DNA of 64,000 nt from Gammaproteobacteria bacterium. Its GTDB lineage: Bacteria; Pseudomonadota; Gammaproteobacteria; Pseudomonadales; Halieaceae. The stretch is taken from positions 52,023 to 116,022 of the forward strand of contig JAUHXH010000006.1 in the NCBI GenBank assembly GCA_030427085.1. Reading direction: 5' to 3'. The position numbers and the translations under genes were made by a program. This document shows, in pieces, positions 37,698 to 52,420 of the stretch. Below the pieces are notes generated by a model, which worked only from the letters and a program-made list of their open reading frames with translations, was not told where the DNA came from and did not search any database. Every line of letters starts with the position of its first letter. Position 1 is the stretch's first letter.

Positions 37698-37964
37698 GGG
37701 ACTACGCGAGCTAACTCAAGAAGGGCCGCCCAGTTTACCACACAAAAGTGTGACGAGCGCCACGTCACACTTTCCGAGGCTGGCCGGTTTTGATGTCGAA
37801 TTAAGGGCTTCCACACCCGTTGGTTTGCCAGTATATTAGTTCGACAATAATTGCTGCTTATATTTTAAGCAGAACAAGCGTGTTCCCAGAACTACCAACC
37901 GGACTCAGGGGAGGGTCACGGTGGCAAAGTGCCCGGCAACAGGGCATGTGATTCTGGGCAACCA

Positions 37965-39710
37965 ATGGGACCAAGGGGCACTGTGGATCAACGACATACC
38001 GTCCTCGTTATATCCGAGAATGCAGCGGATCATCTGATTCTGGCTGAAAGCCTGGAACGCGCCCTCCCCGCGCGGTTTACCCTCGCCAATAACGAAAGCC
38101 TGGAACGCCCCCTGGAAGCACTGCTGGACCCGTCAGTGGATGCCGTGATTGTTTCCCATGGGCCCGAAACCGATTATCTGCTTCGACTCGCGCAGAAAAA
38201 CGGATCCTGCACTCCAATTATCGTATTGCTGGAAGAGCCCGACATGCGACTCGCCGCAGAATTAACCGAGGCTGGCGCCCAGGACTACCTGGTTCGCGGC
38301 CAACTGCAAGACCACCTGATCCATCGCATTCTCGACTACAGCATTCAACTCAAGCAGGCGCGCCTGCAGATCCAGCAATTGTCGAGCCGCGACGGCCTGA
38401 CCGGCACCCTGAACCGGGCCGGCTTTCGGAGCCACGTTGCTCGGGCCATGGAGCGCTCCGAGCGCTACGGTTTTCGCACTGCCCTGCTGTACCTCAACAT
38501 CGACCAGTTCAATTTCATCAACGAACAATTTGGTGAAACCAGCGGTGATAGCCTGATTCAGGAAATGGCCGATCGCCTGTCGAACAAGCTGCGTAATTCT
38601 GACTGCATCGCCCGTATTGGCGGCGACGAATTTGCAGTGGTGCTGGAGGACGTGTCTGACGACGACAATGTCGAGGCCATTGCCAGTAAAATGCTGGACG
38701 CCATCTCCGAACCGCTGGCCCTGGAAAACCAGAAGATCAGTGTAAACGCCTCCATCGGCGCCGCGGTATACCCAGATGATGGCCGCGCCTTCGGCGAACT
38801 GGTCAACGGTGCGCGCAGCGCAATGCAACAGGCCAAGGCAGCGCAGGGTGGCAAGTTTGTTCGGTACAGCGAGCAGATCAGTTTTAATGAAGACGGCAAC
38901 ACCGCAATTGCTGCCGAATTGCGTAATGCCCTTCGCCGGAATGAATTTGGACTGCACTTCCAACCTCGCATCGACCTCTCTACCGGGCAGCTCGTGGGCG
39001 TAGAGGCCTTGTTACGTTGGCTGCATCCTACGCGCGGAATCATCCTGCCCGGCGAATTCCTGGCGGAATGCGAAACCATGGGTCTGATGAAAACCATCGG
39101 TTACCAGGTTATACAACAAGCCTGTAACGCTCTTAAATGGCTGGACGAACAGGGCATGGAACATGTCGTGGTCGCGGTCAATATCTCCTTCTCACAATTT
39201 CAGGACGAGCGCTTTGTCGACATCGTTACGGACATCGTCAAGCGAGCTCGCATCGACCCTAACCGGCTGGAATTCGAACTCACCGAAAGCACCATCCTCA
39301 AGAACGCCCACGACCTGAAACCACGGCTTGAGGCCCTGCGCATGATGGGCATTTCGTTCTCCCTGGACGATTTCGGCACCGGCTTCTCACAGCTCAGCCA
39401 CATCACCGAACTACCCATTTCCGCGCTGAAAATTGACGCGGGGTTTGTGCGCGATGTACCCACTAACGCCCAGCAGGTTGCCGTGTGCAAAATGATAATC
39501 GACATGGCTGAACGGCTGGACATGCTGGTAGTCGCTGAAGGCGCCGAGAGTCGGGAGCAAGTGCGCTTCCTGATGAGCCAGGGATGCCATCAGGTACAGG
39601 GCTTTTACTACAGCCCCGCCATCCCGTTGGAGCGCCTGCCCCGATTTGTTCAGGAGCAGCGCTTCCGACGTCGCGACTTCTCCCGCCACCTGCTCGGCGA
39701 CGGCGCCTGA
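37965..39710 (+). CDS. GGDEF-EAL protein with a degenerate receiver-like N-domain
   Basis: RIGGDEFAVV and EALLRW are intact. The N-terminal CheY-like fold has SEN where the acidic pair is expected. The start could be ATG 37965 or GTG 37929. Confidence 0.85.
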   Translation: MGPRGTVDQRHTVLVISENAADHLILAESLERALPARFTLANNESLERPLEALLDPSVDAVIVSHGPETDYLLRLAQKNGSCTPIIVLLEEPDMRLAAELTEAGAQDYLVRGQLQDHLIHRILDYSIQLKQARLQIQQLSSRDGLTGTLNRAGFRSHVARAMERSERYGFRTALLYLNIDQFNFINEQFGETSGDSLIQEMADRLSNKLRNSDCIARIGGDEFAVVLEDVSDDDNVEAIASKMLDAISEPLALENQKISVNASIGAAVYPDDGRAFGELVNGARSAMQQAKAAQGGKFVRYSEQISFNEDGNTAIAAELRNALRRNEFGLHFQPRIDLSTGQLVGVEALLRWLHPTRGIILPGEFLAECETMGLMKTIGYQVIQQACNALKWLDEQGMEHVVVAVNISFSQFQDERFVDIVTDIVKRARIDPNRLEFELTESTILKNAHDLKPRLEALRMMGISFSLDDFGTGFSQLSHITELPISALKIDAGFVRDVPTNAQQVAVCKMIIDMAERLDMLVVAEGAESREQVRFLMSQGCHQVQGFYYSPAIPLERLPRFVQEQRFRRRDFSRHLLGDGA

Positions 39711-39800: not shown

Positions 39801-41615
39801 ATGCCCCCACAGCACGAAACACAATTGAGCCCGAAAATTCTGGTCAGCGACGACGACCTGAATGTTCGTCTGCTCACACGCCAATGCCTGGAAGCGGAGG
39901 GCATGACGGTTGTGGAAGCGGCCAGCGGGCCGGAAACGCTGGACATTTTTGTACGCGAGCGCCCTGACCTCGTTTTCCTCGACGTTGAAATGCCGGGCAT
40001 GAGCGGCCTGGAAGTGTGCCGCCGCATCCGCCAAATGCCGCAGGGCGAGTCTATTCCCATTATGATCGTCACCGGCTCCGATGACCGACAGTCCATCGAC
40101 CAGGGCTTCGACGCTGGCGCAACCCAATACAAAACCAAACCTGTAAACTGGTCGCTTCTCGGTCGCGATGTGCAGTACATGCTGCGCGCCAGCCACGCGT
40201 TTAATTCCCTGAAACGTCAGGAATACCGACTGCGCTACCTGGCGTTCTACGACCCTTTGACCAGCCTACCCAACCGGCGCAGCTTTAACGAACAACTCAA
40301 TCGGATTCTTAAACGCAGCCAGCGGCATGACAGCAGTGCGGCGCTGTTATTTATCGACCTGGATCACTTTAAACGCATCAATGACTCAATCGGCCATGGC
40401 CGCGGCGACCGCCTGCTGGTGGAAATTGCCAAACGACTGACCAATGAACTGCGCGAAGACGACGCGATCAACTATTTCAGTGATCACAGTGACAACGACG
40501 CAGAGCGAAATACGGAAATAGCCCGCCTGGGTGGCGATGAATTCACCGTTGTATTGTCCGACATCGACGACACTACGGCCGTGGAGTCTGTGGCGCGCCG
40601 AATTCTGAATTCGCTGTCGCAACCCATCCCGCTGCAATCACACAATCCAGTTGTAACGCCAAGCATCGGGATTGCACTGTACCCACAGGATGGCACCGAC
40701 CCCGACACACTGGTCCGCAATGCGGACACAGCAATGTACGCCGCCAAAGCAGATGGACGTGCCTGCTATCGTTTCTACAACGAAGAAATGAATGCGCGTG
40801 CGGTCGAGCAGCTCAAAATGGAGGAGGAGCTGCGACACGCACTTCACTTCAATGAATTGGAGCTGCGCTACCAGCCCCAGATCGACACCCGCACCGGCAA
40901 AGTAGTAAGCATGGAAGCACTGGTGAGATGGAAGCATCCGGAACGCGGCATGGTGCCCCCCAACGAATTCATCCCTGTGGCAGAGCGCACTGGCCTGATC
41001 ATTGAACTGGGCGAATGGGTAATGGCCGAAGCGGCCAAGCACTGCATTTATTGGGACAGCCTGGGCTTGAGCGATTTCCGCGTAAGCGTGAACATATCGC
41101 CGCTGCAGTTTAATCAGCCTAACATTACCGAGGTCGTTCGCGACTTCCTGGACCGCTCCGGGCTGCCGCCAGAGCGACTGGAACTCGAACTGACCGAAAG
41201 CGCCATCATGACGGACGCGGAGATCAACATCGAGAAACTCAGGCAACTGAAAGCCCTGGGACTGGCATTGGCGGTGGATGACTTCGGCACCGGTTATTCG
41301 TCACTGAGCTATCTGAAGCGTTTCCCGATCAACACACTTAAAATTGACCAGAGCTTCATAGCCGACCTTTCCAGCCCGGACGGCGCAGCAATTATTGACG
41401 CCATCATCGCCCTGTCGCGCACACTCAGCCTACGCGTTATCGCAGAGGGTATCGAAACAGCAGAACAAATGCGCTACATGGTCGACAAGCAATGTGACCT
41501 GTTGCAAGGCTATTACTTCGCGCGCCCCCTGTATCCCGAGGATGTTCCCAATATGCTCAAGGAGGACTTCCTGGACTACTTTGCACCTTCGATCGGCTCC
41601 TTGACCCGAGCCTGA
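39801..41615 (+). CDS. Response regulator with GGDEF-EAL output
   Basis: The REC domain is canonical (ILVSDDD..VFLDVEMPGMSG..TGSDD). RLGGDEFTVV and EALVRW are both present. Confidence 0.9.
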   Translation: MPPQHETQLSPKILVSDDDLNVRLLTRQCLEAEGMTVVEAASGPETLDIFVRERPDLVFLDVEMPGMSGLEVCRRIRQMPQGESIPIMIVTGSDDRQSIDQGFDAGATQYKTKPVNWSLLGRDVQYMLRASHAFNSLKRQEYRLRYLAFYDPLTSLPNRRSFNEQLNRILKRSQRHDSSAALLFIDLDHFKRINDSIGHGRGDRLLVEIAKRLTNELREDDAINYFSDHSDNDAERNTEIARLGGDEFTVVLSDIDDTTAVESVARRILNSLSQPIPLQSHNPVVTPSIGIALYPQDGTDPDTLVRNADTAMYAAKADGRACYRFYNEEMNARAVEQLKMEEELRHALHFNELELRYQPQIDTRTGKVVSMEALVRWKHPERGMVPPNEFIPVAERTGLIIELGEWVMAEAAKHCIYWDSLGLSDFRVSVNISPLQFNQPNITEVVRDFLDRSGLPPERLELELTESAIMTDAEINIEKLRQLKALGLALAVDDFGTGYSSLSYLKRFPINTLKIDQSFIADLSSPDGAAIIDAIIALSRTLSLRVIAEGIETAEQMRYMVDKQCDLLQGYYFARPLYPEDVPNMLKEDFLDYFAPSIGSLTRA

Positions 41616-41637: not shown

Positions 41638-43650
41638 ATGCCCGGAAAATCTCACATTGCACGCTTGGTTTCGAACCTTCTGTTGACGGGACTGCTCGCC
41701 GCGTGCACGGAACAACCACACGAACTCCCACAGGAAGTCATGCTACAGGGCAACAACGCCCCGGCCATGCGTGAGTTGGTGGAAGTGGCTGGCGGTACCG
41801 TCACCCACGACCTACCACTGATCAACGCCGTGGGAGCGCAACTCACACCGACGCAACTTCGCGCTGTCATCACGTCACCGCAGGTGATCCGCCACATCAC
41901 CGACGTCTCGATCGGTGAATCAGAAACACCAGAGGACACCGAACCGCCGGAGCCCGGCATGCCCTGCGACATCGCCGGCGCGCTGGAACTGGAGTTCGAG
42001 AAAGAAGCACTGACGTGGTCGATTTTCAACAAACGTGCAAAGCCGGGGCGGCTCCAACAGCTACAAATGACGTGGCCCGTCGCACTGGGCAAGCTGGAGT
42101 CACTGACGCTGAATGGCGAGTCGCTGGCAAGTCTTGAAGCGCAGAGGCGTGGCAGCCTGAAGCTGGGACTGGACGACTTCGCCCAGCACCAACTCCCCAA
42201 CGGCGAACGATCGGTACTGTTAGCACGTTTTTCAGAGAATCCTCCCAAGCGCCTGCAAGCGGACTACTCCATCGCACTGGAATTCGACGGGGACTGTGGC
42301 ACGGCACTGGTCCCGGGCTACCCCCACAATGCCGAGGACTCCTATTTCCCCACGGTAGTGGGTGCGGACCAACTGCACAGACACGGTGTAACCGGCGATG
42401 GCGTTACCGTCGCCATTCTCGACTCCGGGCTGTGGGATCACCCACAACTCACCCTCGATACCCGGGATCAACCCCGCGTGCTCAGCCGCTTTGACGCTAT
42501 CACCAACCAGTCCGTGGAGACTGCGTTCGATGAAAGCGGACACGGCACCCACATGGCCAGCGTTATCGTAAACAGCGGCCCCACAACCAATCCCGACCGG
42601 GCCCCGGGCAGCTTCAAAGGCATCGCGCCCGACGCCAACCTGGTGGTGGTTAAGGCGTTCAATGTGGAAGGCCAGGGCAATTACCTGGACATCGTTCGCG
42701 GCATTCAATACGTGGTGGACCACCGCGAAACCTTCGACATCCGGGTGCTCAACCTGTCCTTTGCGGCGCGCCCACGCTGGCACTACTGGGAGGACCCCAT
42801 CAACCAGGCACTGATGCACGCCTGGGCAGCCGGCATCACTATTGTCGCCGCCGCCGGCAATGAGGGGCCGGACGTGATGAGTATGGGCTCCCCCGGCAAC
42901 CTGCCCTACGCCATCACTGTGGGGGCGATAACTGACTCCTGGACACCCGATGACCGCAGTGACGACTACATCCCGGACTTTTCATCCCGCGGCCCTACAC
43001 CAGCCGCTCACATCAAGCCCGACCTGGTAGCACCCGGCGGCCATATCACAGGGCTTACCCGGCCCGACTCAACCCTCCTGCGGGAAAACCCCGAATATCA
43101 ATTGCCAGGCGGTGAGTTTGTACTTACTGGCACATCGCAGGCGGCCGCCGTAGTCAGTGGAATGGTGGCCCTGCTGTTGCAACTACAACCCGAATTGAGC
43201 CCGGACGACGTGAAGTGCAAGTTCACCAGCAGCGCCGAGCCTGCCATTGGCGCCGACGGGCTGCTGGCCTACAGCCCCTTCCAGCAAGGCCACGGCTACG
43301 CCAGCGTGACTCGCGCCATCACTCTGGGAGAAACCGGTTGCGCCAACCAGGGACTCGACATCGCCCGCGATATTGCAGGGCATGATCACTTTGAGGGGCC
43401 CGCCATCATTGACGACCATGGCAACACCAGCCTACCCGGCCTGGAGCAAGTCTATCGCGACACACCGCAGGCCAAAGGATTCAGCACATCTCGTAAATGG
43501 GGCGTAAAAGCCCACATCGAACGCCCCGGCTACCAATGGGGAGCCCAAGGCCAGGCCCCGGACGCTCGCTTCGACTGGGAAAGGCTCTACCAGGCCGAGA
43601 AAGCCAAAATGGACGCACTGGCGCGAAAACAGGCCCCGACAGCAGAATAA
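41638..43650 (+). CDS. S8 (subtilisin-family) serine peptidase, lipoprotein
   Basis: The lipobox is LLTGLLAAC|TE. The catalytic triad contexts are AILDSG, HGTHMASV and GTSQAAAVVSG. An N-terminal I9-like propeptide region is present. Confidence 0.9.
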   Translation: MPGKSHIARLVSNLLLTGLLAACTEQPHELPQEVMLQGNNAPAMRELVEVAGGTVTHDLPLINAVGAQLTPTQLRAVITSPQVIRHITDVSIGESETPEDTEPPEPGMPCDIAGALELEFEKEALTWSIFNKRAKPGRLQQLQMTWPVALGKLESLTLNGESLASLEAQRRGSLKLGLDDFAQHQLPNGERSVLLARFSENPPKRLQADYSIALEFDGDCGTALVPGYPHNAEDSYFPTVVGADQLHRHGVTGDGVTVAILDSGLWDHPQLTLDTRDQPRVLSRFDAITNQSVETAFDESGHGTHMASVIVNSGPTTNPDRAPGSFKGIAPDANLVVVKAFNVEGQGNYLDIVRGIQYVVDHRETFDIRVLNLSFAARPRWHYWEDPINQALMHAWAAGITIVAAAGNEGPDVMSMGSPGNLPYAITVGAITDSWTPDDRSDDYIPDFSSRGPTPAAHIKPDLVAPGGHITGLTRPDSTLLRENPEYQLPGGEFVLTGTSQAAAVVSGMVALLLQLQPELSPDDVKCKFTSSAEPAIGADGLLAYSPFQQGHGYASVTRAITLGETGCANQGLDIARDIAGHDHFEGPAIIDDHGNTSLPGLEQVYRDTPQAKGFSTSRKWGVKAHIERPGYQWGAQGQAPDARFDWERLYQAEKAKMDALARKQAPTAE

Positions 43651-44037
43651 CCCCCCGCCACCCCAGAGTGCGATTCACACGCGCTTACAGACCACACTGA
43701 TCTACACAAGCCATTACAGAGCCAAATGCACTAACCACGCGCAGTGTTCTGCCCGCCTGATCGAAAATGATGTAATTGAAAGTGGGAAAAATGCGCATAA
43801 ATGCGGATTTTATTCAGTTTGGGAATAACAAAAGGGCCTGCTAATAAGTTTTTATAACAAGAGGGTATAAGTTACTCATAGCTACCCCAATTAGGTTATA
43901 TAAATCCCTTCATTGCTTATCGCACCGCGCCTATAACGTTGTCAAGCATCCAAATTTAGAGATGTGGGGCGGGTCTCAGAACACACTTCCCGCGGAATAC
44001 TCTGAAAAGAATTTGCTAGTTGGAAGGCGTGACAATT

Positions 44038-44634
44038 ATGAAAATACTCAATCTCGGATTCAGAACCATCCTCACTGTTGTTGTAGGAACATGTACGGCA
44101 AGCGCCTTGGCGCAAGAGGCCCAGAGTACTCAATCAGTGTTGGTGACAGCAGTGTCACATTCAATAGCAACCGGTACCTCATATGACTCCGTAGAGGTAA
44201 CAAACGGTTTCAAATGGTCTGGAACTGCGAGCACTCCTGCAACCGCTCAACACTGGGACAACAACAACGCGCCTGATGCCTCCGGTTTCAAGTGGCTGTC
44301 AGTCAACTCGTCGACTGGCCAAGACTCTGCTAGAGAAGCCGGCTCAGCATTAGCAACGAGTGAACATCAGACCGCCGGATTCAAGTGGAACAGCAATTCA
44401 GAATCGAACCAAACGGGTTTTAAGTGGGGCATTCGCTCTACTGCCGAGCAGGCTGGCTTCAAATGGGGCATCCGATCCACCGCCGATCAATCAGGATTCA
44501 AGTGGGGTATTCGATCCACCGCTGATCAGTCAGGGTTCAAATGGGGTATCCGATCCACCGCCGACCAGTCCGGATTCAAATGGGGTATCCGATCTACCGC
44601 CGATCAATCAGGATTCAAGTGGGGCATCCGATAG
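44038..44634 (+). CDS. Secreted tandem-repeat protein (10 GFKW motifs; five and a half 13-aa GFKWGIRST[A][DE]Q[SA] units at the C-terminus)
   Basis: ATG 44038. The Sec signal is MKILNLGFRTILTVVVGTCTASALA|QEA. The ORF ends exactly after GFKWGIR. I recognise no similar family. Confidence 0.75.
   Translation: MKILNLGFRTILTVVVGTCTASALAQEAQSTQSVLVTAVSHSIATGTSYDSVEVTNGFKWSGTASTPATAQHWDNNNAPDASGFKWLSVNSSTGQDSAREAGSALATSEHQTAGFKWNSNSESNQTGFKWGIRSTAEQAGFKWGIRSTADQSGFKWGIRSTADQSGFKWGIRSTADQSGFKWGIRSTADQSGFKWGIR
44416..44631 (+). repeat. 39-bp in-frame tandem array (5 full units plus a 21-bp terminal unit)
   Basis: The units start at 44416, 44455, 44494, 44533, 44572 and 44611. Units 2-5 encode identical peptides but differ at 3-6 third-codon positions. 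Confidence 0.95.
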
Positions 44635-44833
44635 CTTCCACCGAAATACCCAGCGTCATACAGCCATCTGCTCCAGGCTCGGAGCGGATGGCCCATACCG
44701 ACGAACAACCACGTGATTAATCTTTGATTTTCCCGTGAGCACTGGGACAGCCCCTTATCCCAACCTCTAGTGCTCACCCGCAACATCATCTAACATGCTG
44801 ATCAACTAAGAGTAAAAGACAGCATTCCTTCCG

Positions 44834-47800
44834 ATGTGGCGAGTCTACAAGCTGGTCATCCTGTTAACCCTTTGGGGTGCGTGTTCCGCGTGGGGCGTAT
44901 CGCCCAGAAATTTCCATCTGAGTGTGGCGCCCTTCACTGCCGAATTCACCTCGCAAACTATTCTCGACACCTATCAAGACCGTCAGGGGTACCTGTGGTT
45001 CGTCGCGCAAGAGGGTATCTACAAATACGATGGATTCAAAACAAAGAACTTTCTGTACAACTTAGAAGACGACCAATCCATAAGCAGCAATTCTCCTAGC
45101 GGAATCGCTGAGGATTACTTAGGCAGGGTCTGGATCGCCACCCGCGGTGGAGGGCTCAATCTTTATAATGCTGCTGACGATACATTCTCGTCTTTACAGC
45201 GGTCTGGAAACACACTGTCATCCACTGAACCATTCGATAACTTCATACTCTCACTGTTCGCCGACTCTAATGGCGATCTATGGCTAGGTCATCAAAATGG
45301 CTTTAGTCAGTTTGACGTTAGCGAACGTCAGTTTACGCACTACAGATTCAGCACTCCCGATGTTCAGTTTGAGGTCAACGGCTTCGCTGAATCGTCCGAT
45401 GGCATCATCTGGATTGCCACATTTGGCGCGGGGCTTCTCTCAGTAGACCCAAAATCTGGAGAATTCAAACCTGGCTTTGGCTCGGAGATGTCATTCACTG
45501 ACAGCGTTTCGCTCAATATCTCGTCCCTCATTGTCGACAAGCACAACAACCTTTGGTTAGCACATAGAAACTCGGGGGTATCAAAACACAACCTCGAGAC
45601 GGGAGATGCAGAAGTATTCAGGCAATCGTCACTTGACGAATTTTCGATCTCTTCAGATTCAACAATAAAAATTTATGAAGACCAGGGTGGGACGATCTGG
45701 GTTGCTACGGAAGATGGACTTAATGTTCAACGTAGCGGTGGAAATGGCTTTATGACCTTTCATGAGGGGAACTCCCAGATCCCCAACAACAAAGTTAGAA
45801 GCATCTTCCAAAGTTCAGATGGAACATACTGGATCGGCACACAATACCAACTAGGCTTTGGCCGTGTCTCGCAATTCAGCCACTACACGTTCGAAGAAAG
45901 CGTCTCTAGCAATTCAGTGAATACATTCTCTACGACGCCGGATAATCGACTTTGGGTGGGCACGGATGATGGTTTGAAAGTAATCGATTTGCCCATTTCC
46001 TCAGAAGAGGAATTTATCTACAAAAACATAAATGAAAGCACCTACCCAACTCGAATCAGTTCATCAAGAGTAATGAGCATTCTGGGTGAGCGTGACTCAT
46101 TATGGGTTGGTACCGCAGACTCCGGGTTGAATCACATAGATCTGACTACGGGTGGTGTTCAAAATTTTCAAAGTAGCAGGCGAGATCAATCCTCTTTAAG
46201 TGCGAACGGCGTTACATCCATTCTCCGTGACAGTGCAGGAAGCTTATGGATAGGCACCTGGGGAGGAGGACTAAACAGACTAAAAGATGATGGTTCCTCG
46301 TTTGAATCCTTCACGCACGACCCAATCGATCAATATTCTATTAGCAGTAACCTCGTAATTGCACTTTATGAAGATAGTAATGGATCGTTGTTTATTGGTA
46401 CAGCTGATGGCATAAACAGATTTGATAGGAATACAAACACTTTCTCCAGGTTCCAGCACGATCCTTACAACAAGAGTAGCCTTTCCAGCCGAATGGCGTG
46501 GACTTTCCATGAAGACTCAAATGGCAGGCTCTGGGTAGGAACTGATAGCGGAGGACTCAACTATTGGACGAAGGAAGATAGAGCAGCGGAAGTAGACCAC
46601 TTTTACCATCTTGCAGATCGCTCACTAATTCCTAGCTCAAGCATATATGGAGTAACAAGCGATTCGAGTGGAACACTATGGATATCTCACAATAGAGGTA
46701 TAACTCGAATAGACAGTACTCTGAATGAATTTAAAACCTATGACTCAACCGACGGCCTGCAAGATAATGAGTTTAATCATGGAGCAATTCACTCGCTCGA
46801 AAACGGCACAATGTTATTCGGAGGAAACAGAGGCTATAACTTGATCGATCCATACGAAATTTCTGATGTCACAAAAGCTCCAACCGTCCAGATTACTGGC
46901 ATCAGTATTTTGAATCAGCCAACTAACTTTGATGTCCCCGTTTACGACCTTCAAACTCTGACAATCGACCACAGAGACTACCTAGTTTCGTTCAATTTCG
47001 CTGTCATGGACTATGTCGCGCCTGAGCACAATCAGTATAAGTACATCCTGGAAGGCTTCGATCCGAACTGGCTAATTTTGCAAGAGTCTCGATCAGCTAC
47101 TTACACAAATTTGCCCTCAGGAAACTACATACTAAGAGTTTCCGGAGCAGGCGCGGATGGCGTATGGAATGAAAGCGGGGCTACCTTACATATCAACGTT
47201 CTTCCACCTCCATGGAAAACCTGGTGGGCTTATAGCGCTTACGCATTCCTGATACTGGTAGTTGCAACATATCTCGCAGCTGCCCAACGCAGGAAAGTAC
47301 TTAATGCGCTAAGTAGGCAACGAGAACTTGAAAAGAAGGTCGAGGAGAGAACTCACGATCTAGTGGAGGCTCGCCGCCAAGCTGAGGATGCGAACGCAGC
47401 AAAGTCCGAATTCCTTGCAACGGTGAGCCACGAGATTCGGACACCCATGCACGGTATCTTGGGTATGAATGAGCTTCTTCTACACACCGAGCTTGACGAA
47501 GAGCAGCGCAAATTCGCGTCAGCTGCAAAATCTAGTGGAGAAACGCTACTATCGTTAATGAACGCTATTCTCGACTTCGCAAAGGTGGAAGCCGCCAAAG
47601 TAGAAGTGGAGTCCATTTCTTTCGATCTTCGCGAACTAATTGAGACGACTTGCTATCTTCAAGGGGAACCAGCATCGAGGAAGGGCTTGGTATTGAACAA
47701 CATACCAGATCCAACGCTGCCAAGCGAAGTTACTGGCGATCCGGATAAGATTCGCCAGGTTTTGATGAACTTGATAACTAACGCAATAAAATTTACGCCA

Positions 47801-49294
47801 TCAGGGAACGTCACAGTTCGTTCAACATTGGGCCAACAACCGAGTTCTACTGAAAAATACACTTTGGCTTTTCAGGTAGAGGATGAAGGAATTGGCATGA
47901 CCGAAGAAACTGTCGCCAAAGTTTTTGATCCTTTCACCCAGGCTGATTCAAGCACCACTCGTCAATTCGGTGGCACCGGGCTTGGACTTGCAATCACCAA
48001 GAATTACGTCGAATTAATGGGTGGCAAAATTGACGTCTATTCTCAGCCGGGGGTTGGAACAAAGATAGCAGTGGAAATCCCTGTCACGGTAAGCAAACCG
48101 TTTTACTCTGTGAATGCGGTTTATGATCAATTAACCGCCCGAGTGATATCAACCAACTCACTTACCGCAGAGATGATTCAAGTCCATCTGATCTATTTCG
48201 GTGTCAATTCGATAATTACCACAAGTCTTGATGACTTTTTCAGCGCCCCAGATGTGGATCTTTATATCGTAGACCTATCCTCAATGGATGAAGCGACATG
48301 TCAAGAATTCCGACTGCGTTGTACTAGGGATGTGGAGTCGCGAGTATTGGCATTAGCAAGGGTGCATACGAAAGACCCTGAGAATATGGTCCCACATCAA
48401 AGACGCATTACTCTTCCCATCTCAACCAAACAGCTTCAGCAGGAAATAAATTACATTGTGGAAGGAGCCCCCACCTGTCATAAGGAAGTCGAGGCCACAC
48501 CACGAGTTCCACAAGGTGTTCAGGCCCACATACTTCTTGCGGAGGACCTCGAGACAAATCAGAAAATTGCGACTGAGATGTTGCAGATGATGGGACATAG
48601 AGTAACGTTAGCCGCGGACGGCTTAGAGGCAATCAAACTATTCGAACGCGACAGGCCAGATTTAATTTTTATGGACTGCCAAATGCCATTGATGGATGGG
48701 TTCACGGCTGCCAAGAAAATACGCGAAACGGAGAAATTAAAAAATTGGCCACATATTCCGGTAATCGCTTTAACAGCTGGCACTAGCGACCATGATCAGA
48801 AAATGTGCATTTCCGCAGGGATGTCTGATCACATTTCAAAACCATTTAGTGTGGAACAAATATCAAGCGTACTCGAACGTTACTTAGGCATCAAAAGTGA
48901 ATATTCAACTATTAAACAACAATCAAAGAGCTCATTTATAGTCGATGCCATAGTCAACAAAGCGGCTGTTGATAACATTGCCGAAGTAGAACGCTTGTCC
49001 GGAAACATAATATTTCCAACAGTTTTGAACGAGTACCATCATCAATTCGAAATTAAGGTTTCCGACCTCAACCAAGCGCTTGAAATCGCTGACGAGTTAG
49101 TTTTCGCACGAACTAGTCATGCCATAAAATCTATGAGCGCGAATGTGGGCGCTGAACAGGTTATGAAGCTGAGTTCAGAAATGGAAAAAAGATCCAGGGA
49201 AGGAGATTTGCGTGAAATGAAAAACGAAATCGAGAAACTTGAAGCCGCATATAAAGCTTTTTCTAGCGCTATACAGCTACACGTCAAACAGTAA
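44834..49294 (+). CDS. Hybrid sensor histidine kinase: periplasmic double beta-propeller plus Y_Y_Y, TM, HisKA-HATPase, degenerate REC, REC and Hpt
   Basis: It has a signal peptide and repeated WIGT/WVAT..GL propeller blades. The Y_Y_Y block is [25 protein letters not shown]. The H-box is [10 protein letters not shown]. HATPase elements are NAIKFT, DEGIGM and GGTGLGLAI. The REC reads [14 protein letters not shown] and the Hpt reads [12 protein letters not shown]. Confidence 0.9.
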
Positions 49295-49300
49295 ACTCTA

Positions 49301-52300
49301 ATGCGAAGAATCACACTCGCGTTAATGAGCGCAGTACTGTGCTGTTCGGTCACTAGTCTTAATGCCTTCGGATCAGAGCTTGAATTTCATGTAGTACCCT
49401 CTGAACTGGCAAATGGGCTTAGGCAAACTTCCGTCTGGGAAGTAATGCAAGATAACTCTGGCTTCCTCTGGGTCTCAAATTTTGCTGGCCTCACCCTCTT
49501 ATCAGGTGAGGGCCAATATGAATACACTCCGAACGAAAATCCAGATTCTAAATATTTCCTCCCAAGCAGACGTATTTTCAAAATACATCAGGACAATGCC
49601 GAGAGAATCTGGGTGATTACTAATGATGCTGGCGTGTATCGGAGTAATCACACAAACGGTGGCTTTGATTTAATCGCCCAAATTAACGATTCGACTTTCC
49701 CAATGGATGGGCTCACAAGTGCGTTAGTTGATTCCAACAATACGCTCTGGCTAGGACACAACTCCCAAGGCATCCGGTCCATAAACCTCGACTCTAAAAT
49801 TGCCTTCACTCCCGAAAATAGGCATGCAGGCCCAGAAATTGTTGAGATAGTGGAGGATGGCAGAGGTTTCATTTGGTTCGTTCGGCAGGACACAACGGTT
49901 CTTAGATACCATCACGACCAAGACGGAAGATTTGAGTTACTTGGACCAGAAATTTGCTCCAACCCATCCGGTGTACCACTTAGAGCTTTTAACGTTTCAA
50001 GTGAGAGTATTTTAATCCAATTCAACACCGGGAAAATTTTTGAGATCTCCCAAAAGGATTTTAAGTGTGAACTGCTGACCATAGAAAATGCCGGTCCTAT
50101 AGCAAACGCTTTAATCAACGACATGGTTAATTATGGCAACAATCTTCAAATCTTCGCCACTGATCATGGAATTATGGTGTATCGAGGCCGTAATTTAATT
50201 CATCACTTTCATTCTGAAAATTCGTCCCTGAACGATAACGAAATTGGAACACTGAGCGCCCCGGAGTCAGGTCCGATCTGGATTGGCACTCACAATGGGC
50301 TTTTTAAACTGATCGAAACTCCTTTTAAGTTATATAACCAGCAAAAAAGTGGGTTCTCCGGCCCCGTAGTAGCTTTTGCAGAGTCTCCTCTCGGTCTTTG
50401 GGTTGCCACATACAATGGCTTGTACCTACGAGATAGTAAATCTGGGCAGCATGCTTCTGTCCGCGATTTATTCCCAGACGCCGACCTCACGAACAAGCAA
50501 ATTATGTCGTTGGCCTATAGAGAAAACAATCTATGGGTAGGATATCGAGCTAACGGCCTGGAAATTCTCAACACAACGAATGGTAGTGTCACAAGATTTT
50601 CTTCTAATTCTTCACCGCCGCTTTCCTCTGACAACATCACCACGATTTATCCGCTCGGGAACAACCTTACTTTGATCGGAACTTACGGGGAAGGCCTGAA
50701 TATACTAGATACTACTCGCGGGTCGATAGAGCATCTAAATGCTGAGCAAGGAAACGGCTCTATCTCTGGAAATAATGTATTGGCGATGACCGAATTCTCG
50801 GCGGGAAAAATGTTAGTTGGGACCGAGCAGGGATTAAACGTTCTTGACTTACATACCCAACGGTTTAGCTTCGATGCCACATCAACTACAGCCACACCCT
50901 TTGAGACTGTACAAGTTTGGGCGATAACTTCTGACTCGACGAACAATTATTGGATAGGAACGCGCGACAGTGGCCTACTGCGCTTGTACACACCTAAAGA
51001 CTCCCAAATTAGCTTGTTACTTGAAAAAATTCAGCCGTCACAAGAGTTTCCAGTTCATACAGTTTTTTCTGCCCAAGTTGATAATCAGGACTACCTTTGG
51101 CTAACGACTCACCTAGGGCTGTGTAGAGCAAAACTAACTGCAGATATATTGCACTGCTACGATGCCGGTCATGGCCTGCAGGGTAGGGAGTTCGACTATG
51201 GGGCCTCCCTGAAATTACGGAATGGCAATTTAGTTTTTGGCGGGAGTTCCGGATATAACGAGTTCAATCCTGAGAAAATTGAGGAGGGTGCAGACCTCCT
51301 GCACCTAAATTTTACAGAGATCCAAATCAGAGGTAGTTCCAGATACAACCCACTTCAGATGAAAAACCGAAAGAGAATCAAATATGCGTACACTGACAAT
51401 GTCGTAGCTTTCTTCTTTTCCGGAATGTCCAATGCGGGTGATACGACAAAAACCTTTAGGTACAAACTGAGCGAACTGAATGAAGACTGGCGGATTTCCA
51501 CCGGGTCAGCCACCTTCACCAACCTCCCCCCGGGCACCTACACCTTCGAAGTACAAGGCGCCAATTCAGCCGGCACCTGGAATCACGACGGCGCCACATT
51601 AGATCTGATCGTACACACTCCCCCCTGGAGAACGGTATGGGCATATTGGATCTACGCCGGCATGTTCCTTACGTTTCTGTGGATTATGCGGCGCGCTTAC
51701 GATGCGATTGGTCAAGTTGCGCACGCTACTGAGCACGCGGAGCGAATGGAGGAAACGGCCACGCTGGCTATGGATCAGTTGCAGGATCAAATGCAAGTAC
51801 AGACTGACATGGCGGACGCGCTACAGGAATACTCTGAGCTCAACATCAATCTAATTCAAAATGTGCTGTCCTACTACTCAGAAAAAGAATCTGAATCACC
51901 TACCGCACAAGAGCTTCGTGCGCGCTGCACGCTTCGCTTGCATACGCTGCACTTGCTTGATTCCTGCATCTATCATCACGGCGCTCTACTCTATGTGAAC
52001 ATGCACGACTTCTCAGAGCGTGTTATCGATGACCTCCTGGAACGGCATGGGCTCGATGAAGAAGCAGTTATTGTCACCAACGATGTAACAGGCGAGCTAT
52101 TCCCGGCGGAGACGGGCAGCCTGCTAGCACTGATCCTCTACGAGTTGCTCGAAAACTGTTTCCAACACGCATTTCATGCGCAAAAAACTGTCAATTTCAT
52201 CATGCTGCGTCTAAACAAGAGTGGCTATGATGCTACAGATCAGCCTGTCTTTGCGCTCGAGGTTGCCGACAATGGCCCGGGCGTTCACGCTGATGAAATC

Positions 52301-52420
52301 CCGGCGCTTATGCAAGGCCCGGGCATGCGGTTTGTGAAATCACTAGCCGAGCGTATCGATGCCTCCGTGCATGTTGATGGCAATAATGGGCTGGACGTTG
52401 AGATATCACGGTCAGTGTAA
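49301..52420 (+). CDS. Sensor kinase-like protein: periplasmic double beta-propeller plus Y_Y_Y, TM, HisKA_2-like dimerisation region without an obvious phospho-His, and HATPase
   Basis: It has propeller blades and a Y_Y_Y block (FRYKLSELNEDW..FTNLPPGTYTFEV), followed by a TM segment. The C-terminus LALILYELLENCFQHAF..VADNGPGV..GPGMRFVKSLA is HATPase-like. It starts 6 nt after the previous gene. Confidence 0.8.
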   Translation: MRRITLALMSAVLCCSVTSLNAFGSELEFHVVPSELANGLRQTSVWEVMQDNSGFLWVSNFAGLTLLSGEGQYEYTPNENPDSKYFLPSRRIFKIHQDNAERIWVITNDAGVYRSNHTNGGFDLIAQINDSTFPMDGLTSALVDSNNTLWLGHNSQGIRSINLDSKIAFTPENRHAGPEIVEIVEDGRGFIWFVRQDTTVLRYHHDQDGRFELLGPEICSNPSGVPLRAFNVSSESILIQFNTGKIFEISQKDFKCELLTIENAGPIANALINDMVNYGNNLQIFATDHGIMVYRGRNLIHHFHSENSSLNDNEIGTLSAPESGPIWIGTHNGLFKLIETPFKLYNQQKSGFSGPVVAFAESPLGLWVATYNGLYLRDSKSGQHASVRDLFPDADLTNKQIMSLAYRENNLWVGYRANGLEILNTTNGSVTRFSSNSSPPLSSDNITTIYPLGNNLTLIGTYGEGLNILDTTRGSIEHLNAEQGNGSISGNNVLAMTEFSAGKMLVGTEQGLNVLDLHTQRFSFDATSTTATPFETVQVWAITSDSTNNYWIGTRDSGLLRLYTPKDSQISLLLEKIQPSQEFPVHTVFSAQVDNQDYLWLTTHLGLCRAKLTADILHCYDAGHGLQGREFDYGASLKLRNGNLVFGGSSGYNEFNPEKIEEGADLLHLNFTEIQIRGSSRYNPLQMKNRKRIKYAYTDNVVAFFFSGMSNAGDTTKTFRYKLSELNEDWRISTGSATFTNLPPGTYTFEVQGANSAGTWNHDGATLDLIVHTPPWRTVWAYWIYAGMFLTFLWIMRRAYDAIGQVAHATEHAERMEETATLAMDQLQDQMQVQTDMADALQEYSELNINLIQNVLSYYSEKESESPTAQELRARCTLRLHTLHLLDSCIYHHGALLYVNMHDFSERVIDDLLERHGLDEEAVIVTNDVTGELFPAETGSLLALILYELLENCFQHAFHAQKTVNFIMLRLNKSGYDATDQPVFALEVADNGPGVHADEIPALMQGPGMRFVKSLAERIDASVHVDGNNGLDVEISRSV

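Follow-up and report, generated by a model that had tools for sequence, protein, structure and literature searches.

In Bacillus, the Phr pro-peptides are exported by the Sec pathway and cut by subtilisin, Epr and Vpr, some of their precursors hold several copies, and the peptides are taken up again to bind Rap (RRNPP) receptors in the cytoplasm. In Myxococcus xanthus, the subtilisin-like protease PopC makes the intercellular C-signal by a single cut of CsgA, a non-repetitive protein. Periplasmic proteolysis of a repeat-rich substrate is controlled by cyclic di-GMP (c-di-GMP) in the LapD/LapG system, in which LapG is a cysteine protease and LapD is a degenerate receptor signalling inside-out. 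Multi-core precursors are found in cyanobactin pathways, where PatE is accompanied by the S8-family proteases PatA/PatG, and in fungi as Kex2-processed repeat proteins (KEPs), which include the yeast alpha-factor precursor MFalpha1 (PMC6339444, PMC7329392, PMC9769878). On the sensor side, the Bacteroides hybrid two-component protein BT4663 and PorZ are double beta-propeller plus Y_Y_Y proteins (PMC5121618, PMC8545088). Here we analyzed a 64,000-nt stretch of a Halieaceae genome (GenBank assembly GCA_030427085.1, contig JAUHXH010000006.1, positions 52,023 to 116,022), called the window below. Its open reading frame (ORF) at 44038-44634 (+) encodes a secreted array of tryptophan-centred units, which is homologous to arrays fused to a clade of S8 subtilases and is placed between an S8 subtilase gene and the genes of two propeller sensors. 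The results suggested that the subtilase may cut the array into peptides that are read by the adjacent sensor.

Of the features of these known systems, the ORF shares only the generic ones, a signal peptide and tandem units, and lacks each testable defining one. Like KEPs and MFalpha1, it combines a signal peptide with tandem, near-identical short units, the peptide is under selection, an S8-superfamily protease is associated with it, and the copy number varies between species. However, its units have no dibasic KR/RR sites, the neighbouring S8 is not a kexin and carries no P-domain, sequence homology to KEPs is absent, the host is a diderm in which export leads to the periplasm only, and a periplasmic propeller sensor takes the place of a G protein-coupled receptor as presumed receptor. 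The likeness to cyanobactins is that of a bacterial multi-core precursor with S8-family proteases nearby, whereas the PatA/PatG recognition sequences are absent, the PatA/PatG model TIGR03895 of NCBIfam scored 44.3 bits (cutoff 421), no heterocyclase or tailoring gene was present near the ORF or at about 50 related loci, and the linked genes code for sensors and c-di-GMP enzymes instead of forming a biosynthetic cluster.

The Phr system resembles what is proposed here in that an exported pro-peptide, occasionally a multi-copy one, is turned by S8 proteases into short linear signals, but no Opp or RRNPP genes are linked to the ORF, and its neighbours are an S8 gene, Reg_prop/Y_Y_Y kinases and GGDEF-EAL proteins. 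LapD/LapG also couples a periplasmic protease to a GGDEF-EAL membrane protein with a periplasmic domain; the protease here is instead a serine protease of family S8, the GGDEF, EAL and DDFGTG motifs are intact, kinases take part in several lineages, and the sensor fold is another one. A tandem array and an adjacent propeller sensor are both present here and both missing from PopC/CsgA. The sensors beside the ORF have the same periplasmic Reg_prop plus Y_Y_Y architecture as BT4663 and PorZ. The Bacteroides hybrid two-component systems, in contrast, have AraC-type DNA-binding outputs and belong to polysaccharide utilisation loci, whereas the outputs here are an Hpt phosphorelay, GGDEF/EAL enzymes or sigma54 AAA+ activators, with a protease and its Trp array as the invariant neighbour, and no SusC/D or glycoside hydrolase genes are adjacent at the window locus or in the non-Halieaceae contexts examined.

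The ORF is uninterrupted and translates into a protein of 198 amino acids (aa). The first 25 residues (44038..44112, +), read by eye, form a Sec-like signal peptide, MKILNLGFRTILTVVVGTCTASALA, with the cut between ALA and QE, which supports the Sec export claimed in an earlier sequence-only reading of the same DNA, and a hydrophobic N-terminal leader was seen in all homologues. In the following region (44113..44415, +), a helix is predicted and the GFKW motif occurs three times in degenerate form (aa 57, 83 and 114); in the homologue alignment the conserved islands of this region are V..V.H.LA....Y and SG(F/Y)KWG. The array itself (44416..44634, +) consists of six units of GFKWGIRSTA[D/E]Q[S/A] in 39-nt register, and the last one is truncated to GFKWGIR and directly followed by the stop codon. 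Tandem Repeats Finder called a period of 39 with 5.3 copies and zero indels. The exact register from 44416 and the stop after ...GFKWGIR were thus as the earlier reading had described them, but its count of 10 GFKW motifs has to be corrected to 9 (aa 57, 83, 114, 127, 140, 153, 166, 179 and 192), as the tenth Trp of the protein sits in AQHW. Units 2-5 (44455-44610) each encode GFKWGIRSTADQS, which has a single Arg and no dibasic (KR/RR) pair. Pairwise comparison of these four units agreed with the earlier observation that they are identical in protein and 3-6 nt apart by synonymous changes only: all 30 differences were synonymous, and the 9 variable sites were all third codon positions (p ~2.6e-6 for 9/9 synonymous by chance, with 24% of sites being synonymous).

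A word-indexed search of 5.8 billion proteins returned 38 relatives of the repeat protein, and an exhaustive profile search of 1.84 billion representatives only 163 clusters, showing that the family is real but small and narrow. All close relatives are 110-260 aa long. Their leader precedes a short, conserved N-terminal stretch, in which a loose (G/S)(F/Y)(K/R)W motif occurs 2-3 times, and an array of 2 to about 19 units with a Trp every 13 residues; almost all of them end three residues past the last Trp. A scan of one genome per species with a repeat-only alignment found the gene at 38 loci, nearly all of them Halieaceae by name, including Congregibacter, Pseudohaliea, Chromatocurvus, NOR5-3, Haliea, Parahaliea, Halioglobus, Sediminihaliea, Kineobactrum and Aequoribacter. 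The window ORF had zero matches in Pfam and NCBIfam, and so did its homologues apart from a marginal match to DUF7211 (PF23847). The window protein did not match this family at the Pfam gathering threshold, the homologue P0020 was barely over it (28.7 vs 27 bits), and 2/28 members matched at E<1. The earlier reading had not recognised the motif from any described RiPP (peptide made on ribosomes and modified after translation), autoinducer or adhesin family, and no such family matched in these searches. For the motif and module there is no Pfam, NCBIfam or Rfam model, and a literature full-text search found no paper on them and nothing relevant on DUF7211 or on Reg_prop/Y_Y_Y together with GGDEF, subtilisin, Halieaceae or Congregibacter.

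The unit consensus of the family is G-(Y/F)-(K/R)-W-G-I-R-(S/N)-x-A-(D/E)-Q-(A/S), in which position +5 alone is free, and 11 of the 13 positions are conserved in Halieaceae. Between the units of one gene, the median proportion of synonymous differences (pS) was 0.36 and that of non-synonymous differences (pN) was 0.03 over 41 homologous arrays; inside the array of the window gene, pN/pS was 0.04. Units are uniform within a species and different between species; Congregibacter, for instance, has SYKWGIRSTADQS, and Pseudohalioglobus has GYRWGVRSFADQS. As pN is low, pS is high and the units are species-uniform, selection acts on the peptide unit, on all copies alike, and uniform protein with synonymously diverged units is what is expected if every copy must yield the same product. 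Purifying selection on the peptide, which had been suggested from the window alone, is therefore not specific to this genome and is strong throughout the orthologous arrays whatever their copy number.

Short-read contigs very often end inside the array (L009, L014, L016, L018, L020, L023, L024, L027, L030, L037 and L042), assembly breaks or frameshifts in the array also bear on P0036, P0051, P0089, P0140, P0284 and P0300, and long-read frameshifts can turn the array into another, fake repeat such as ASAGPTKTSPSRP. Databases thus miss part of the family and contain wrong calls of it. Four Pfam-free proteins of 549-998 aa (P0117, P0118, P0125 and P0138) carry 15-30 tandem 14-aa units DLRWG(I/V)R(T/S)xxxDxx, which closely resemble KWGIRS; these proteins have the look of phage or surface fibres, with no S8 in them. 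P0145, another profile match, is a eukaryote-like precursor with 13-aa units ending in LRWGKR, that is, a Gly amidation donor plus a dibasic site. Formally this is the twin of the bacterial array, yet it is almost certainly unrelated. Both were judged to be probably convergent or unrelated, having neither an S8 nor the Halieaceae N-terminal region.

Neither the S8 gene upstream of the repeat ORF nor the homology of the array to S8-fused arrays had been noticed in the earlier reading. The S8 subtilase (41638..43650, +) is an exported enzyme with a signal peptide, an I9-like propeptide, a middle domain and a catalytic domain with D/H/S motifs (Pfam Peptidase_S8 6e-49). It has no P_proprotein domain, and among solved structures Tk-SP 3afg is the nearest. 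An S8 with fused Trp arrays, P0137, shares 45% identity with the window enzyme over 489 aa; P0137 came out of the exhaustive profile search built on free repeat proteins and then served as a query. P0137 has 1049 aa, about 17 C-terminal copies of the 12-aa unit AGFIWNLSNPEN, the end ...GFIWNL, and 15-aa xRYLWExx units at its N-terminus. The profile of the free proteins thus retrieves S8-fused arrays. C-terminal units of such enzymes are GFIWNL... in Pseudomonadales metagenome-assembled genomes, GYIWNL... with up to 40 copies in Azotimanducaceae, SQLWGNVRF... in Aliiglaciecola, SQLWRNSGF... in uncultured kin of the Aliiglaciecola S8 (P0316, P0326), NAIIW(Q/P)... with spacings of 16, 21 and 24 residues in Psychrosphaera, and G(S/T)HW... 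in Glaciecola. In a metagenome scan made with an S8 alignment, S8s at least 43% identical almost always had C-terminal Trp arrays, many of them hexamers (GYLWNN, STLWNN, TALWSD), and S8s 30-42% identical, from soil and other habitats, often did (NIVWGE, NVVWGT, SVLWGD, or 5-mers). Fused arrays occur in other Gammaproteobacteria and in other phyla. A C-terminal array was present in 113 of the 153 sampled clade members, with the common core [GS]-[aromatic/aliphatic]-[LIV, or K/R in Halieaceae]-W-[NGS]. An unannotated Trp-repeat appendage, for which Pfam and NCBIfam have no model, is thereby uncovered on a large S8 clade; as it disrupts assemblies and leads to frameshifted gene calls, its under-annotation is systematic.

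The Halieaceae S8s keep a C-terminal tail and have no array. In the window (43489..43587, +), this tail has three Trp exactly 13 aa apart (SRKWGVK / GYQWGAQ / RFDWERL), the first motif of which, SRKWGVK, resembles an array unit, and every Halieaceae S8 orthologue conserves EKG.S..R(R/K)WG(V/I)KAHIER and, after it, a second (F)DW. An array without an S8 was never seen, being either fused in cis or adjacent in all ~40 Halieaceae loci. Given the homology with fused arrays and the conserved unit-like tail, the free repeat protein is best understood as a detached version of the S8 C-terminal appendage, and the 12- and 13-mers appear to be a Trp hexamer plus a Trp-less spacer. Its homology to the Trp arrays that S8s of this clade carry makes the array primarily a partner of the protease, not of the kinases.

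Some further features of the S8 proteins were observed. The database call P0163 (636 aa) starts at Met35 of the window S8, without the signal peptide; if the ORF is taken to begin at 41638 (41638-41739 region), the export signal is restored together with a possible lipobox, LAAC, which is not conserved in orthologues. That the S8 is an outer-membrane lipoprotein was dropped as a general feature, as orthologues have ordinary Sec signal peptides. The N-termini of P0137, P0283-P0287, P0294, P0304 and P0306 carry a second Trp repeat, (A/S)RYLW(D/E)(D/E/G)..., with a period of 12-19, so that the catalytic domain is flanked by two kinds of array. Many fused arrays end in a distinct conserved motif, x(R/K/E)WV(E/A/D/N)(Q/H)E, which is not a repeat unit (P0292, P0296, P0304, P0306, P0311, P0313, P0316, P0318, P0319 and P0326), and the second Trp motif of the Halieaceae S8 tail may be its counterpart. 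At L060:556-9694, at least three tandem S8 paralogues each have their own Trp hexamer array (GSVWNE and similar), with no sensor within the range examined. P0361 (L048:10001-11881), a distant actinobacterial S8 with C-terminal RASWS pentamers, lies inside a tryptophan biosynthesis cluster, with trpE/G/D/C upstream, trpF/B/A downstream and an HtrA-like protease adjacent.

The physical state of the array was examined with AlphaFold2 (AF2) models. For the window protein no confident fold was obtained (mean predicted local distance difference test score, pLDDT, 53; predicted template modelling score, pTM, 0.22; a helix at 32-48 with low confidence). In the fused enzyme P0354, the propeptide and catalytic domain had pLDDT 80-95 and the array 30-51, and regular short strands were drawn in the units, again at low confidence. 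With shallow alignments of 28 and 18 sequences behind the two models, the low AF2 confidence may be taken as weak evidence for disorder. Unit spacing across the clade is 5, 6, 10-13, 16, 21 or 24 residues. As it varies both between proteins and within single ones, this indicates that a linear motif with a spacer fits better than a fixed solenoid.

The earlier reading had also pointed to two propeller kinases about 200 bp downstream of the ORF. They do lie there, 200 nt away, and their link with the array proved stronger than had been claimed, as it recurs in unrelated contexts with five output architectures. The order regulator, S8, repeat ORF, kinase(s) is retained in every Halieaceae locus examined (~40 loci), and in every one the module is flanked by nadA and an enoyl-CoA hydratase gene; such synteny by itself is evidence for the vertical inheritance of one locus and nothing more. 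Outside Halieaceae, a fused-array S8 was directly upstream of a propeller/Y_Y_Y sensor in 6/6 contexts, which are on long contigs with unrelated flanks, and the gap between the two genes was 130, 143, 109, 101 or 1 nt, or the genes overlapped. On one constant periplasmic sensor, these six contexts have five distinct output architectures: a PAS-HisKA_2 kinase, either followed by a REC-GGDEF-EAL gene (L044) or with a gene overlapping that of the S8 (L129); a hybrid kinase with Hpt, followed by a REC-GGDEF-EAL gene (L045, Aliiglaciecola); GGDEF-EAL fused to the sensor (L046, Psychrosphaera); GGDEF fused to the sensor (L047, Glaciecola); and a PAS-GAF-sigma54 activator beginning 1 nt past the S8 (L130). 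The same sensor adjoins the S8/array at nine more metagenome loci. At three metagenome loci another c-di-GMP protein takes the place of the sensor (CHASE4-HAMP-GGDEF-EAL, or GGDEF-EAL), and at three metagenome loci adjacency to the sensor was not seen.

Because the sensor stays constant and the outputs are swapped, the arrangement bears the classical signature of an S8/array tied to the input side of the sensor, and judged from gene order the link is independent of shared locus ancestry. Sigma54 enhancer-binding proteins, GGDEF- or sensor-linked, also recur beside the module (L047:15286-18312 (-), L065:3742-5937, L129:5807-8650 and L130:11084-15532), which hints at sigma54-dependent transcription as a second common output.

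We propose, with a probability of roughly 45%, that the S8 subtilase cuts the array into Trp peptides which are read by the sensor, thereby controlling c-di-GMP. The product of the ORF would be exported and largely without structure, serving to carry the repeated Trp-centred units. Sec would bring both it and the S8 into the periplasm, where the S8 would recognise x-(F/Y)-(K/R)-W-G and cut the array, along with the N-terminal three motifs, to give Trp peptides some 13 residues long. Either these peptides or a change in, or loss of, the array would be read by the double-propeller/Y_Y_Y domain of the adjacent hybrid kinase(s), and the kinases would, via Hpt, phosphorylate the REC-GGDEF-EAL regulator and so set the c-di-GMP level (in the window, first kinase to Hpt to REC-GGDEF-EAL).

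As for the position of the cut, cleavage after Arg is one possible option, since the array ends in ...GIR. The element common to the array, its N-terminal copies, the S8 tail and the fused arrays is x-[aromatic or aliphatic]-x-W plus a small residue, and this would equally fit cleavage after Trp, a view that rests on general knowledge of subtilisin subsites. Arrays end 2-3 residues past the last Trp in two independent lineages (...GFKWGIR and ...GFIWNL), as expected of a unit boundary, or of a minimal prime side where the last unit is cut. Given a Sec signal peptide in a diderm, the array protein would reach the periplasm only. The sensor domains lie in that same compartment, and this does not imply a pheromone secreted from cell to cell. 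Signalling is more likely to run outside-in than inside-out as with LapD, because the GGDEF/EAL motifs are intact, as in enzymes rather than receptors, and kinases take part in several lineages. The pheromone model of the sequence-only reading therefore needs three changes: the protease has to be included, a periplasmic arena allowed, and the cleavage site left open. Taken more broadly, a subtilase that makes its own ligands from an encoded Trp array, in cis or as a separate precursor, could be the natural input of propeller/Y_Y_Y sensors, an idea we put forward tentatively and with more doubt than confidence.

Several points weigh against this proposal. Cleavage, peptide release and sensor binding are inferred. 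The strongest point is that arrays also occur on S8s that have no sensor, so that the ancestral role needs none: distant array-bearing S8s with Trp hexamers had no propeller sensor nearby at metagenome loci, and the actinobacterial array S8 had no propeller sensor as a neighbour. Since sensor-less S8s carry arrays, the ancestral role of the array would be protease-centred, and its link to the sensor would have been added later, in Gammaproteobacteria. The array could serve as an anchor, pro-domain or inhibitor. For the propeller/Y_Y_Y sensor fold, the ligands known are glycans, not peptides (BT4663, PorZ) (PMC5121618). Conservation of 11/13 unit positions in Halieaceae is more than a bare cleavage motif needs. 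The mean pairwise identity of the first kinase was 39% in the periplasmic part and 54% in the kinase core; the sensor domain is thus only moderately more divergent, and a clear signature of ligand-receptor co-evolution was not found. A folded state of the array may also exist, given the shallow AF2 alignments and the low-confidence beta strands.

As a rival explanation, the array could be an uncleaved, multivalent docking platform whose Trp units bind the propeller blades or the Y_Y_Y domain, with the sensor reporting occupancy; the fused array would tether the S8 to the sensor, and the free Halieaceae array would be an adaptor or a competitor. The genetic linkage supports this as much as it does peptide release, linear motifs with variable spacers and low AF2 confidence consistent with disorder would suit it, and the unit-like motif kept on the Halieaceae S8 tail could be the enzyme's own docking handle. 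We nevertheless consider both docking and tethering rather unlikely, because up to 35-40 identical units are far beyond what docking needs, arrays also occur on S8s without a sensor, and a substrate-like motif is unlikely to stay uncut beside a broad-specificity subtilase domain. Alternatively, the array could be a pseudo-substrate, pro-domain or decoy that regulates the S8 by occupying or buffering its active site; the actual signalling event would be the S8's action on another target, such as the sensor ectodomain, or envelope proteins of which fragments are sensed. Auto-processing is common among the C-terminal extensions of subtilases, and a Trp followed by a small residue, with a hydrophobic residue at -1 or -2, as in the motif here, suits subtilisin subsites. 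The array is also bound to the S8 clade across phyla whether a sensor is present or not, and a unit-like tail is conserved on the Halieaceae S8. This explanation leaves without a reason the conservation of the whole 13-mer, including the STADQS spacer, and the separate signal-peptide gene with its own 3' hairpin, and inhibition is already supplied by the I9 propeptide, so we regard it as unlikely.

That the ORF encodes a structural or envelope-binding repeat protein, either a beta-rich fibre or solenoid or a binder of peptidoglycan, polysaccharide or membrane, like fungal repellents or curli-type repeats, is suggested by the regular short strands that AF2 draws per unit, by the richness of the units in Trp and Gly, and by the profile's matches to the phage-like DLRWG(I/V)R(T/S) 14-aa repeat proteins, which are probably structural. 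It is judged improbable, as pLDDT is low in both models, members with just 2-3 units occur, spacing varies within and between proteins, known repeat or binding domains were not detected, and the invariant link to a sensor input domain would have no reason. Far less credible still is a multi-core RiPP precursor whose Trp and Lys are cross-linked or modified before release. Trp and Lys are frequent cross-link partners in RiPPs, and the formal layout of several cores beside an S8 protease is that of cyanobactins; but radical SAM enzymes, cyclodehydratases, P450s, MNIO or other tailoring enzymes were conserved in 0 of ~50 loci, and the PatA/PatG model gave 44 bits against 421. The RiPP reading was rejected for lack of a conserved tailoring enzyme in the neighbourhood.

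If the proposal of array cleavage and sensing by the propeller protein is true, it would describe a widespread bacterial signalling module with c-di-GMP or sigma54 transcription as outputs, the first class of peptide ligands for the double-propeller/Y_Y_Y sensor fold, and the first multi-copy, alpha-factor-like peptide precursor in Gram-negatives, possibly a cell-to-cell or envelope-state signal. To our knowledge, ligands have been found for very few Reg_prop/Y_Y_Y sensors, those being glycans, and we know of almost no linear peptide signals sensed in the Gram-negative periplasm; there is a substantial chance of something unprecedented in bacteria. The hypothesis names a defined 13-mer (or a Trp-terminated variant), a protease, a sensor ectodomain and a c-di-GMP readout, with STADQSGFKWGIR and GIRSTADQSGFKW as candidate ligand peptides, and cultured marine carriers are at hand in Congregibacter, Pseudohaliea, Chromatocurvus, Aliiglaciecola, Psychrosphaera and Glaciecola.

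The gene order in the window, by Pfam, is GGDEF-EAL, REC-GGDEF-EAL, S8 subtilase, repeat ORF, hybrid kinase and second sensor. The first gene (37929..39710, +; GGDEF 2.6e-39, EAL 4.3e-71) is accessory, being found at this position in some Halieaceae loci only. The REC-GGDEF-EAL response regulator (39801..41615, +; Pfam Response_reg, GGDEF and EAL) has intact GGDEF, EAL and DDFGTG motifs. It is upstream of the S8 in all Halieaceae loci, its equivalent is downstream of the sensor in L044 and L045, and it is likely the endpoint of the phosphorelay and the c-di-GMP output of the module. Downstream of the repeat ORF, the hybrid sensor kinase HK1 (44834..49294, +; Pfam and hydrophobic segments) is composed of a periplasmic double-propeller (Reg_prop)/Y_Y_Y part at aa ~25-797 (Reg_prop 1e-46, Y_Y_Y 3e-18), a transmembrane (TM) segment at 798-816, and HisKA, HATPase, REC and Hpt domains; it follows the repeat ORF in all Halieaceae loci. 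HK2 (49301..52420, +), a second Reg_prop/Y_Y_Y sensor with HATPase_c (Pfam Reg_prop 9e-19, Y_Y_Y 2e-14), is present in most of them and weakly resembles PorZ, a double-propeller protein, in NCBIfam. In both HK1 and HK2, Reg_prop and Y_Y_Y lie between a signal/TM segment and a TM segment.

Between the S8 gene and the repeat ORF there is an intergenic leader of 387 nt (43651..44037), in which a promoter scan did not find a sigma-70-like site and no Rfam family, c-di-GMP riboswitches included, was matched. Two short direct repeats were seen in the leader at 43789-43865, one with adjacent copies (AAATGCGCAT/AAATGCGGAT) and one with copies 29 nt apart (ATAACAAAAGGG/ATAACAAGAGGG), and these could be binding sites of a regulator. 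At 30 nt past the stop codon of the repeat ORF, a G+C-rich stem-loop with a 12-bp stem and no U tract was found (44663..44692, +; minimum free energy -27.7 kcal/mol, z -3.3), which a simple terminator scan did not call. Stable hairpins occur at the equivalent position in 64% of 33 Halieaceae loci, with a median z of -2.9. The stem-loop is probably a transcript end or a stabiliser between the repeat ORF and the kinase gene, which suggests that the small gene is expressed at a level unlike that of the kinases and would permit higher expression of the array.

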